Part shown: positions 13,560 through 16,505 of the stretch, piece by piece
How positions within the stretch are numbered: the first letter of the stretch is position 1
Layout: the number at the start of each line of letters is the position of its first letter
Source of the DNA: Deltaproteobacteria bacterium
GTDB lineage: Bacteria; Desulfobacterota; Binatia; Bin18
NCBI GenBank assembly: GCA_013140885.1
Contig: JABFSC010000304.1
Coordinates: 1 to 32,037 of the forward strand
DNA: 32,037 nucleotides
Reading direction: 5' to 3'
Notes under the pieces: generated by a model
Seen by the model: the letters and a program-made list of their open reading frames with translations, nothing else
Told to the model about the DNA's origin: nothing
The model's database searches: none
Position numbers and translations under genes: made by a program

Positions 13560-14282
13560 CTAAAACTTCTCCTTAAACGGACGCACATCGAGTTCCTGTG
13601 TCCACGCACTGGGGTCTTGGTGGGCGAGATGCCAATAGGTTTCGGCAATCGCTGAGGGCTTGAGCATGTCTTCTTCCTTGAGCTGTGGGAACCGTTCGCG
13701 GATCACGGGCATGTCGATTGCCCCATCGACATTGATGTACGCCACATGGACGCCTTGGGGGCCAAGGTCACGCGCGAGCACTTGCGCAAGTCCGCGCAAG
13801 GCAAATTTTGCCGGGCCGAATGCCGCCGAAGAAGGAAACGGTTTGACGCCCGCCGTCGCTCCCGTCAAAAGAATGCTTCCCTTCCCTTTGGCGAGCATGT
13901 CTGGCACGACCTGTTGCGCGCATAAAAACGCCGCCATCATGCTTACGCGCCACGTATTCTCAAACGTGCTCGGTTTGGTTTCCATTAACCGCCCGACTGG
14001 GCGCATGGCAGCATTAAAGAGCAAGACATCTGGTGCACCCAGTTCACGGCGGACACGCTCGAATGCCGCACGAATCTGTTCCTCCTGAGAGACATCGGTC
14101 GAAACGCCCAAGGCACGGCCCCCAGCCGTTTCAATTTCCTTGACGAGAGTATTGAGATAGGATTCGCGCCGTGCGAGCACGGCAACGGTGTAACCAACCG
14201 CGAAGCGACGGGCTAACGCCGCACCAAGTCCTGGCCCAACGCCAACGACAACAGCAACAGGGTGTGAGGGTGATTGGCTCAT
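13560..14282 (-). CDS. Short-chain dehydrogenase/reductase (atypical FxxxK active site)
   Basis: VGVGPGLG, FNAA, TGATA, AFGPAKFALRGLAQ, AWTQELDVRP. Confidence 0.92.
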   Translation of the reverse strand: MSQSPSHPVAVVVGVGPGLGAALARRFAVGYTVAVLARRESYLNTLVKEIETAGGRALGVSTDVSQEEQIRAAFERVRRELGAPDVLLFNAAMRPVGRLMETKPSTFENTWRVSMMAAFLCAQQVVPDMLAKGKGSILLTGATAGVKPFPSSAAFGPAKFALRGLAQVLARDLGPQGVHVAYINVDGAIDMPVIRERFPQLKEEDMLKPSAIAETYWHLAHQDPSAWTQELDVRPFKEKF

Positions 14283-14494: not shown

Positions 14495-15166
14495 TCAGCT
14501 CTTCGCGAGCGTCCGTAAACACTGGACAATCGCTTCCGGTTCTAACCGATGCGTGTAGTCCGCATCGACGAACGCGAGCGCGATCGTGCCATCTTTCGCG
14601 ACAACGAAGGTACCGGGCATTGGTAGCTCCCAGGACTCGGTTCCGTTATAGGCTGGCAGGTCAGCGCCAATGTTCTTGTAGATTGGCCGTAAAACTTCCG
14701 CCACGGGAAAGACAAGCCCAAACTGTCGAGCAACGGACTGCCCAACATCACTGAGCACCTCGAATTGGACTTCGTCTTTTTCCGCCGTCATAAGGGATTT
14801 GTCGGGAAGCTGCGGTGAGATCGCGATGACCGTGCCGCCGCATGATTGGATTTCCGTGAGTCGATTCTGGTATGCCCGCAACTGCAGGTTGCAGTAGGGT
14901 CACCAGCCGCCACGATAGAAGGTGAGCACCGCGGGTCCTTTGCGCAGGACCTCGGAGAATCGTACCTGTTCGCCACGCACGTTCGGCAAGCTGAAGTCGG
15001 GAGCCTTACTGCCTTCGTGCAATGCGCGCTCGGCGATGCCGGAACGCACTAAATCGGTCGTGGTTTGGGCGAAGGTGTCGAGGATCGGTTGAGGAATCTT
15101 CGGCAACATCTCTTCTTGGAACACCCGGATTTGTTTCTGGAGTTCGGTACTGAGGTTTCCACTCAT
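14495..15166 (-). CDS. Peroxiredoxin-like AhpC/TSA family protein, probable selenoprotein (UxxC, Sec at codon 89)
   Basis: One frame: APDFSLPN..GPAVLTFYRGGW-TGA-PYCNLQLRAYQ..IAISPQ..LSD..ELPMPGTFVV..DYTHRLEP; TGA at 14900-14902; AAAGGAG RBS. Confidence 0.85.
14875..14899 (-). promoter_or_regulatory. Candidate SECIS-like stem-loop directly 3' of the in-frame UGA
   Basis: UGA-CCCUA-CUGCAAC-CUGCA-GUUGCGG-G: 7-bp stem with one GU pair; fit to the bacterial SECIS consensus is not verified. Confidence 0.45.
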
Positions 15167-15258
15167 GTCGTTCATCTCCTTTGTCGCTATACGTGAGGTC
15201 GCGGTCAGAGCTACCGCGCTACGCGTATTGAAGCAACTACCGTGGAGATTGCATGGGA

Positions 15259-15287
15259 GTCGAGACGCTCCAGCGGAGCGTCTCGAC
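15259..15287. terminator. Perfect 13-bp hairpin after the oxidase operon (terminator or stabiliser candidate)
   Basis: GTCGAGACGCTCC-AGC-GGAGCGTCTCGAC; no clear U-tract. Confidence 0.5.
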
Positions 15288-15342
15288 AAGGAATCCGACA
15301 AGGACAAGAGATGAACGGAAGGAGGACTTGGACGAAAAGGAA

Positions 15343-15805
15343 TTAGTGGTGAGTCGCGGGCGGTGGCGTGTGGCGTTGCTGGCGTATGAGCGCTGGGCGC
15401 TTCATGCGAACCTACTGAGGCGGCATCTCCACTGGTATGCGCAGACCCGTGAGCGGGAGCCGGGGGCACGATATCTTTCGGCAGTGTCGCCCAGCCTTTT
15501 GGTCCGGGATTATGCCGGCGAGTTTCCGTGTCTTGCAAGGTAAACGCGAGCAAAATCGCCAACCAAATAAACCCAGCGGCGGCGAACAATTTCGTCAGCT
15601 TGCTCTCGTACTTCACGTGCATGAAGAACAACACCACCAACGTTGTCTTAATCCCAGCAATACCCAGTGCAATAATATTATTAAAGATACCGAAATCTTG
15701 AAACGCGACAGCGACGGTTATCGCAGTCAGAACCATCAACGCCCCGAAGATTTTATAGTACAGCGCAATCGGGGGATGATGGGCGTGTTCGTGGGTGTGT
15801 TCCAT
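15343..15805 (-). CDS. ctaF: caa3-type cytochrome c oxidase subunit IV; 3' end apparently frameshifted
   Basis: YYKIFGALMVLTAITV..IALGIAGIKTTLVVLFFMHVKY; no in-frame stop until 14900, but a shifted frame ends PPPATHH-TAA at 15343. Confidence 0.85.
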
Positions 15806-15827
15806 AGAGGTAATCCGTCTCGTCTTT

Positions 15828-16505
15828 CTAATGACGGCCAATGAGATACAGCAAGGGAAACAGGAAAATCCACACAATATCGACGAAGTGCCAGTAGAGG
15901 CCGAACATCTCAATCGGTGAGTAGTAGTCTTTCGAGAATCGACCACGGATAGCCATGATGATGAGTGGCGTAATAATCCCCGCGCCGATAATCATGTGTA
16001 GCGCGTGCATGCCGGTCATCACGAAATAGAAGCTGTAGAAGATTTGGCTGGGGTTCGCCAGCGGTCCACCATCCGGCCATTGGAAATTATATCCAGGAAC
16101 AAGATGGTGGTCGAATTTTTCCTTGTATTCGATGACCTTCACACCAAGGAACACACAGCCAAGAAAAAGCGTCGCCAGCAGATAGCCTATCAACGGTCGC
16201 TGTTTACTATTCTGCGCGGCGTTGACCGCGAGTGCCATTGTCAGACTGCTCGCGATGAGGACAATGGTATTGAAGCCCCCAAGGGTGATGTCGAGATGAT
16301 GGCTCCCCGCGATAAAAGCTTCAGGGTAATAGGCGCGGTAAACCGTATATCCAGTAAACAACCCACCAAAAAAGAGCACTTCCTGCACCAGGAAGGCCCA
16401 CATTCCCATGGTAACGGCATCCTTTTGCTGCGCCCGATCATTGAACTGATGGGCAACAAAAGGATCGTGGTGAGCAGCGGCTGTCGATGCGTGTGCGTCA
16501 GACAC
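15828..16505 (-). CDS. ctaE: Cytochrome c oxidase subunit III
   Basis: [53 protein letters not shown]; GTG start overlaps the ctaD stop. Confidence 0.95.

Follow-up and report, generated by a model that had tools for sequence, protein, structure and literature searches.

A probable UxxC selenoprotein gene of the peroxiredoxin-like type, with a small proposed SECIS hairpin, in uncultured Candidatus Binatia

Peroxiredoxin-like (Prx-like) selenoproteins with a UxxC motif, in which U stands for selenocysteine (Sec), are said to have been named as a family first in a paper of 2004. Such proteins are represented by 22 'Prx-like' UxxC sequences of pfam00578 from the Sargasso Sea (PMC1088965) and by 225 'Prx-like 1' sequences in the GOS data (PMC2398784), Prx-like thiol:disulfide oxidoreductase selenoproteins are listed for Geobacter and other Deltaproteobacteria (PMC1794560), and the UxxC family stands in the tables of reviews of 2022 and 2026 (PMC9312934, PMC13188914). 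Together, these sources list the Prx-like thiol:disulfide oxidoreductase or Prx-like 1 proteins (UxxC or UxxU) for Geobacter, Syntrophus, Desulfotalea and marine metagenomes (PMC1794560, PMC1088965, PMC2398784, PMC9312934, PMC13188914). A literature search for selenoproteins of Binatia found no paper on the subject among the hits listed. Here we describe a gene interrupted by one in-frame TGA on a 32,037-nucleotide stretch of DNA, the whole of which we call the window (contig JABFSC010000304.1 of the metagenome-assembled genome (MAG) GCA_013140885.1). A first-pass annotation, made from the letters alone, had taken this gene for a UxxC peroxiredoxin-like selenoprotein hidden by its split into two open reading frames (ORFs), and had pointed out that AhpC/TSA-like selenoproteins are known in bacteria. 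The UxxC Prx-like selenoproteins are a catalogued family (PMC1088965, PMC2398784, PMC9312934, PMC13188914). The reading frame, the pairing of UGA with Cys codons and the conservation of a hairpin bear this annotation out. We put at about 93% the probability that the window holds a single unbroken gene of uncultured Candidatus Binatia, that this gene encodes a peroxiredoxin-like redox protein of 223 residues with a thioredoxin fold, and that its UGA at codon 89 is decoded as Sec.

The gene resembles the Prx-like thiol:disulfide oxidoreductases in scoring over the PF00578 cut-off, in placing Sec first in a thioredoxin-like UxxC, in having a candidate coding-region selenocysteine insertion sequence (SECIS) directly past the UGA, and in its widespread Cys homologs; it is unlike them in that this branch, which comes from Candidatus Binatia, is 223 aa long and has two extra N-terminal helices (residues 5-42). 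TGA-form homologs with a nearly identical hairpin occur in 13 of 61 genomes sampled from an order to which a MAG with the label Geobacter sp. belongs, and these homologs join the Binatia forms on the tree (SH-aLRT 84); hence, it is likely that the gene studied here belongs to the catalogued Prx-like UxxC family. Proteins of the Cys type, named 'peroxiredoxin-like family protein' and found in Ktedonobacteria, cyanobacteria and Proteobacteria, are collinear with it over the full length at 44-60% identity and share FYRG.W-x-PYCNLQL, whereas they have TGC or TGT at the site, vary freely and synonymously at codons 93-96 and show no hairpin. The Sec peroxiredoxins of the PrxU type (TxxU; NF040737) have the same superfamily and fold, and an FTGG-U-TKEF candidate of that type lies in the same genome; however, the Sec of PrxU replaces the peroxidatic Cys, while here Sec replaces a Thr/Ser three residues earlier, and the score to NF040737 is only 23 bits (cut-off 270). 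SelL-related redox proteins (NF040769) give a distant full-length match (residues 54-217) with the redox motif in the same place, but the score of 41.3 bits against a cut-off of 120 puts the protein outside that group by this model, and the motif here is UxxC, not UxxS or UxxU. The CxxC oxidoreductases of the ResA/TlpA type share the thioredoxin-like fold and a redox pair placed where the first helix begins, and differ in that the sequence score is low (NF002854, 38 bits vs. 170) and in that Sec here takes the place of their first Cys. The comparison with SelL-related proteins extends to the PRX_like2 group, which is cd02970 in the CDD. A cd02970 selenoprotein with UxxS is listed in PMC13188914.

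An in-frame UGA codon conserved among orthologs

The gene lies on the minus strand, which the first-pass annotation had left unsaid. Read with TGA as U, it (coordinates in Table 1) gives a single frame of 223 residues followed by a terminal TGA, and the TGA in the context LTFYRGGW-U-PYCNLQLR is the sole internal stop of the frame. The first-pass annotation had described just this arrangement, that is, a 223-aa product in which FYRGGW-TGA-PYCNLQL joins two halves intact in one frame, and the halves are found to be equally conserved as well (below). PF00578 (AhpC-TSA) matches residues 52-196 (E = 4.6e-29; 101 bits vs. a cut-off of 26), so the domain spans the TGA at codon 89; the match to PF08534 (Redoxin; 58 bits) also spans it.

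Of 41 related genomes searched in all six frames, 20 encode the protein, the window's own counted. One of the 20 matches is a 53-aa fragment at a contig end that stops short of the TGA site and was left out of the 19 full-length orthologs analysed. All 19, the window's own included, have TGA in the identical column (W-TGA-PYC) at identities of 51-93%; exactly one TGA lies inside each match, and one match has an additional, terminal TAG. There was no match to the protein in 21 of the 41 genomes, among them two MAGs of the same genus (82-84% complete) and 15 of the 16 genomes from outside the family. In a second order, reached via the MAG labelled Geobacter sp., 15 of the 61 sampled genomes carry a homolog, 13 of them with TGA in the same column. 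The first-pass annotation had suggested searching for homologs with TGA at this column and had allowed that all close homologs might turn out to have Cys; instead, the TGA homologs exist in both orders, and none of the 19 orthologs has Cys. The terminal stops of these orthologs are TAA, TAG or TGA, and since TGA terminates seven of the 19, it is an ordinary stop in the lineage rather than a reassigned codon.

The amino-acid identity of the window's protein to each ortholog is the same on the two sides of the TGA (e.g., 92/94, 72/73 and 58/59%), and the 57 invariant columns of the 19-sequence alignment are spread across both halves. As to variation among strains, in metagenome contigs from four public runs, 28 of the 33 listed places of within-gene variation are third codon positions by hand count, i.e., 14 of the 15 listed after the TGA and 14 of the 18 listed before it. 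Three of these runs, which belong to three studies (X1, X5 and X6), have contigs that cover the TGA at 14900-14902, and the rows listed show no difference there; among the rows listed there is likewise no other letter between 14751 and 14926, although the best-matching run may be the source sample itself. Judged from these alignments, both halves behave as translated sequence, and the TGA is no lesion.

A scan of one genome per species gave at least 600 matching stretches, at least 586 of them coding for a relative; the analysis used the 80 best loci. The site is TGA in 26 of these 80 and TGC or TGT in 53, with the motif pattern unmatched in one; the Cys-form hits number 57 once second copies are counted, and every one of them has TGC or TGT at the Sec column, as expected from the first-pass statement that the TGA sits exactly at the first Cys of WCPYC. 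The TGA forms are mostly labelled 'Candidatus Binatia/Binatota', and several of the other labels are clearly placeholders. Several MAG records with a Binatia-type Sec gene (L047, L048, L050 and L059) bear names such as 'uncultured Enterobacteriaceae bacterium', 'Methylomirabilota', 'Vicinamibacteria' and 'Entotheonella', which conflict with the position of the gene on the tree; organism names in this set are therefore unreliable. A search of 5.8 billion proteins returned no full-length relative above 60% identity and, as full-length relatives, only Cys-type proteins with the NCBI name 'peroxiredoxin-like family protein'. Since orthologs at 66-93% identity exist in related genomes and yet none of them surfaced in that search, protein catalogues seem to lack the entire Sec branch in its intact form.

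Proposed recoding hairpin, selenocysteine machinery and rival explanations

The hairpin that we propose as the SECIS (Table 1) starts 11 nt past the UGA, so that the distance from UGA to loop is 16 nt (the 11-nt spacer plus a 5-nt stem arm). The minimal fdhF element of E. coli likewise has a spacing of 11 nt. Only at codons 93-96 (four of the 107 conserved degenerate codon columns) do all 19 orthologs use a single codon; codons 91 and 92 are low in variation too, while the same amino acids at codons 93-96 of the Cys forms are written with many codons. In 42 distinct Sec-form sequences, 100% of the 210 cells of the 5-bp hairpin are paired and the loop A-G-U-U is invariant (42/42); none of 500 shuffles matched its score, and slid controls were 27-57% paired. 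One pair varies on both sides, being G-C in 36 sequences and U-A in 6 (n = 42); the pattern by which the sequences were selected permitted all four letter combinations at this pair, and only these two were seen. The six U-A sequences come from homologs of the second (Geobacter-type) order. The hairpin is retained in all 26 Sec forms versus two of the 57 Cys-form hits, and its energy is -7.2 kcal/mol here, with a mean of -7.7 over the 26 Sec forms.

In PMC13188914 (Fig. 2 legend), the consensus bacterial SECIS is given as an apical loop of 3-9 nt on an upper stem of 4-16 bp, with G in loop position 1 or 2 and mostly G or U next, 16-37 nt from UGA to apical loop, and a minimum free energy (MFE) of -7.5 kcal/mol or lower. 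The present hairpin has a loop of 4 nt on a stem of 5 bp, G then U at loop positions 2 and 3, and a UGA-to-loop distance at the lower limit of 16 nt, and thus appears to fit the published model. Comparative evidence, namely the TGA column, the frozen codons 93-96 and the keeping of the hairpin in Sec forms, indicates a stem-loop beyond chance. The first-pass annotation had placed a stem-loop at once after the UGA: a hairpin is indeed there, but the best supported one begins 11 nt further on, and more stable hairpins that begin earlier are broken in six of the 42 sequences. We envisage that the ribosome, on meeting this UGA, would insert Sec instead of terminating, with SelB presumably bound to the hairpin, whereas the gene's own terminal TGA, which is without such a hairpin, would terminate.

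The MAG that contains the window (as its contig C396) consists of 795 contigs and is 84% complete with 5% contamination. It carries a tRNA-Sec gene (selC) on contig C637 (67.6 bits vs. a cut-off of 47; called by ARAGORN as tRNA-SeC with anticodon tca), adjoined by selA (580 bits vs. a cut-off of 268). selB (379-397 bits) and selD (305-388 bits) score over the cut-off in all five relatives tested, i.e., the same-genus genome G002 and four near-complete family members. Hence, we infer that the organism uses Sec and that its selB and selD lie in the unassembled part of the genome. The first-pass expectation that the genome should carry selA, selB, selC and selD is borne out in this MAG for selC and selA; the other two were not found in it, the best hits to the selB and selD models being paralogs whose sequences look like CysN/C, ThiL and HypE. 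Each relative also has two further hits to the selB model (about 186-340 bits; frames of 396-494 aa), which are taken to be EF-Tu, and there are none in the window's genome; the absence of these EF-Tu-like hits is another sign that essential genes are missing from the MAG. Two of the relatives, G005 (L040) and G002 (L041), carry a selD gene that is itself interrupted by an in-frame TGA (KAAG-TGA-AGKLGP) and has a GGC-loop hairpin, while in G023, G010 and G016 (L042-L044) selD lies within an open frame of 764-782 aa without TGA, which suggests a fused Cys-type SelD in these three.

Alternatively, the TGA could be a single-base nonsense mutation that turned a Cys-type peroxiredoxin-like gene into a pseudogene, a possibility that the first-pass annotation had allowed. 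Many homologs do have TGC or TGT at this codon, one base away from TGA, and the missing selB and selD would suit a dead gene, but a lesion shared by 19 of 19 orthologs down to 51% identity and by 13 of 15 second-order homologs, with a downstream half as conserved as the upstream one and 14 of the 15 listed post-TGA strain variants at third positions, refutes this idea, and we give it next to no weight. The same vanishingly small weight goes to an assembly or sequencing error: the MAG is fragmented and somewhat contaminated, as noted above, but the same TGA stands in 18 related genomes that were assembled independently, several of them into one contig, and the contigs of the three runs that cover the site do not differ in the rows listed. 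A little more room, although still very little, is left for read-through of the UGA as something other than Sec, whether through a suppressor tRNA, a near-cognate tRNA or an altered genetic code. The lack of selB and selD in this assembly would be compatible with such read-through, but TGA terminates seven of the 19 orthologs, a dedicated tRNA-Sec and SelA are present, the homologs have a redox Cys at the position, and the hairpin goes together with TGA and has been lost from the Cys forms, a pattern characteristic of recoding that depends on SelB. We therefore favor decoding as Sec for this codon.

A related question is which hairpin would do the recoding. An overlapping hairpin that begins earlier could be the SECIS instead, either fold A (7 bp, loop CUGCA, 5 nt after the UGA) or fold B (6 bp, loop ACC). 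RNAalifold, applied to the 19 orthologs, selects fold A, and the 5-bp hairpin does not account for the low third-position variation of codons 91 and 92, which it does not include. However, over the 42 Sec forms fold A has 98.0% and fold B 97.6% of its cells paired, each with six broken cells, and the breaks fall exactly where the 5-bp hairpin shows its compensatory change. That is, two changes in the six second-order sequences restore the 5-bp pair and break both alternatives, for which reason we chose the 5-bp hairpin and set registers A and B aside, each being broken in 6 of the 42 sequences; we consider either of them an improbable, though not negligible, candidate for the element.

Several observations weigh against decoding as Sec by way of the 5-bp hairpin. 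Neither selB nor selD was found in the 84%-complete MAG with NCBIfam models or by tblastn with same-genus proteins, and Pfam SelB-wing_3 had no match in the window's genome. On the RNA side, the hairpin alone, at -7.2 kcal/mol, is borderline, just short of the consensus limit of -7.5, and the MFE of -10.8 obtained for the 30-nt stretch is that of another fold; two more stable overlapping hairpins can form in the Binatia sequences (fold A at -9.0 vs. -7.2 kcal/mol); the single sequence after the UGA folds no better than expected by chance (z = -1.24; equalled or bettered by 28 of 200 shuffles); and Rfam at gathering thresholds gave no match over the whole window. (Rfam at E up to 10 over 14700-15000 gave one internal ribosome entry site hit only, which was dismissed as chance.) The compensatory change between G-C and U-A is confined to six sequences, probably of one clade, and would thus amount to one evolutionary event. 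Finally, no NCBIfam model scores over its cut-off for the protein, so that the function assigned below rests on fold and motif only.

Protein fold, likely activity and evolution of the Sec form

The AlphaFold model has a thioredoxin-like fold (mean pLDDT 83.3, pTM 0.85) with two extra N-terminal helices at residues 5-42, and it places U89 after the strand 79-83 and just before the helix 90-101. The nearest solved folds by Foldseek are BCP/PrxQ peroxiredoxins and ResA, the ResA structures ranking 7th and below with TM-scores of up to 0.83 on the target. In a HMMER alignment with archaeal BCP (2cx3), U89 corresponds to the Ser of S-P-V-C (SxxC) and C92 to its Cys, which is presumably the peroxidatic one. 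The T/SxxC motif of peroxiredoxins is thus not reproduced, since Sec89 occupies the Thr/Ser position in this alignment. The scores of NCBIfam models below their cut-offs include 56 bits vs. 140 for NF006960 (thiol peroxidase, the best hit) and 17 vs. 211 for NF009668.

On the model, the site is a thioredoxin-like UxxC, and we favor a Sec-Cys selenenylsulfide couple that would act as a thiol-disulfide or hydroperoxide reductase. Sec89 would cap the first helix at its N-terminal end, with Pro-Tyr-Cys92 next in the chain, in a CxxC geometry of the thioredoxin/ResA type; its selenol would attack as the nucleophile, Cys92 would partner it in the selenenylsulfide, and a thioredoxin-type reductant would recycle the couple. 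The likeliest activity would then be reduction of a thiol-disulfide (or hydroperoxide) substrate, the two residues taking the places of the conserved Thr/Ser and the peroxidatic Cys when aligned to true peroxiredoxins. It is also conceivable that the gene encodes a true Sec protein that works as a peroxidase, with Cys92 or Sec89 attacking hydroperoxides and the other residue resolving. The closest matches in sequence and fold are indeed the BCP/PrxQ peroxiredoxins, the best NCBIfam hit (56 bits vs. 140) is a thiol peroxidase, and the window's genome has other Sec genes of peroxiredoxin type. However, Sec replaces the Thr/Ser of the peroxiredoxin TxxC motif, no peroxiredoxin model scores over its cut-off, CxxC oxidoreductases of the ResA type are equally near in fold, and UxxC is described as thioredoxin-like in PMC1088965; hence, we regard the peroxidase as unlikely, although a good deal less so than any of the alternatives to Sec, and prefer the thioredoxin-like couple.

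A quick maximum-likelihood tree of 96 rows, with an assumed root and leaving out one aberrant second copy and rows shorter than 150 aa, brings all 39 Sec rows and two Cys rows together in one group (SH-aLRT 84). This group consists of a Geobacter-order group (15 rows, support 99) and a Binatia group (26 rows, support 84), and the Sec/Cys label changes at least twice on the tree. With moderate support, the topology is in keeping with a single gain of Sec and a single return to Cys. Two Cys-type genes (L121:1683-1715 and L151) are nested inside the Sec group, and the former retains the 5' arm and the loop of the hairpin (AAC CTG CAG TTG) with the 3' arm changed, as would be expected if Sec had reverted to Cys and the SECIS were decaying.

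The window's genome holds another four candidate Sec genes, in which TGA stands at positions classical for Sec. A TxxU candidate Sec peroxiredoxin (PLAFTGG-TGA-TKEFC; L130:1253-1636, contig C361, minus strand; 125.7 bits to PF00578) is adjoined by a Cys-type copy on the same contig. A paralog of the studied gene with the motif W-U-I-Y-C (FYRSANW-TGA-IYCQLQL; L135:1501-1893, contig C190, plus strand) is followed by a 7-bp hairpin with loop GUA, 21 nt from UGA to loop. The third is a candidate 'UGC-containing Prx-like' selenoprotein (VSWASW-TGA-GCRFD; L137:1501-1908, contig C198, minus strand) with a 7-bp hairpin and loop GUG, and the fourth a formate-dehydrogenase-like molybdopterin oxidoreductase (DSCNRT-TGA-HAPSVAGL; L126:1501-2058, contig C3, minus strand), in which the TGA is at the classical Sec position and a hairpin with a G-first loop lies downstream.

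Taken jointly, these data could be read as follows, tentatively and at somewhat less than even odds for the reading as a whole: the Sec form with its minimal 14-nt SECIS arose once and was kept in, or transferred between, the phylum-level Binatia and the Geobacter-type order, one small branch reverted to Cys, and the selenoproteome of Binatia, which is undescribed in print, is dominated by proteins of the peroxiredoxin superfamily, the window's genome holding at least four Sec genes of that superfamily plus a Sec formate dehydrogenase. If the gene is decoded as proposed, Candidatus Binatia would be added to the lineages that use selenocysteine in thiol-redox enzymes, and the hairpin would be a natural SECIS of very small size, supported by a compensatory change and of possible use in studies of recoding. 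General knowledge of selenoproteins is unchanged, given that UxxC peroxiredoxin-like selenoproteins were predicted about twenty years ago.

Gene layout and neighbouring genes

The features of the locus are collected in Table 1. Instead of the whole gene, standard gene callers would be expected to report the headless C-terminal fragment of 128 aa together with a stub of the N-terminal part, which is the practical point for annotation; it is important to note that the split by an ORF caller, as we use the phrase, refers to the table 11 ORF list and not to the annotation of the record. The AAGGAG ahead of the gene is also conserved in the same-genus genome G002. As for expression, there was no RNA data set among the 20 runs listed.

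Table 1. Positions in the window of the predicted selenoprotein gene and of the elements and ORFs associated with it
Feature	Position	Strand	Details
Predicted selenoprotein gene	14495..15166	minus	ATG 15166..15164; Sec codon 89; terminal TGA 14497..14495; 223 aa
Proposed Sec UGA, codon 89 (U89)	14900..14902	minus	First residue of the U-P-Y-C redox motif
Proposed SECIS hairpin	14875..14888	minus, on mRNA	CCUGC/GCGGG stem (5 bp), loop AGUU, 14 nt; comparative evidence
Frozen 22-nt stretch	14875..14896	minus	Codons 91-97; contains the proposed hairpin and two overlapping alternatives
Shine-Dalgarno-like AAGGAG	15176..15181	minus	9 nt 5' of the ATG at 15166; read directly from the sequence, presumed function
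C-terminal ORF, 128 aa	14495..14881	minus	TTG start; table 11 ORF listing
N-terminal ORF	14900..15946	minus	Stops at the Sec TGA; also extends upstream of the selenoprotein gene; table 11 ORF listing

Upstream of the gene lies a COX4-like gene (MEHTHEH..., about 100 aa plus a low-complexity tail; 15167-15946, minus strand), which is in the same frame with no stop before the selenoprotein gene, so that a single open frame nominally extends from 15946 as far as the Sec TGA. The upstream ORF of G002 ends some 200 nt sooner; the frame is shifted here by a 7-nt indel (near 15380-15400 of the window) and two smaller ones, and the difference may be an assembly error or a natural variant of the tail. 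The selenoprotein gene retains an AAGGAG and an ATG of its own. We rejected a functional link with the cytochrome oxidase genes that lie directly upstream, as the COX4-like neighbour is common only to a same-genus genome (two of the 98 loci searched, both from that one genome). Directly downstream is a short-chain dehydrogenase gene (13560-14282, minus strand), which is also found downstream in three genomes of genus g10 at 78-80% identity; G002 has a 39-aa match to this dehydrogenase at 90% identity, and beyond these cases the gene neighbourhood is not conserved.

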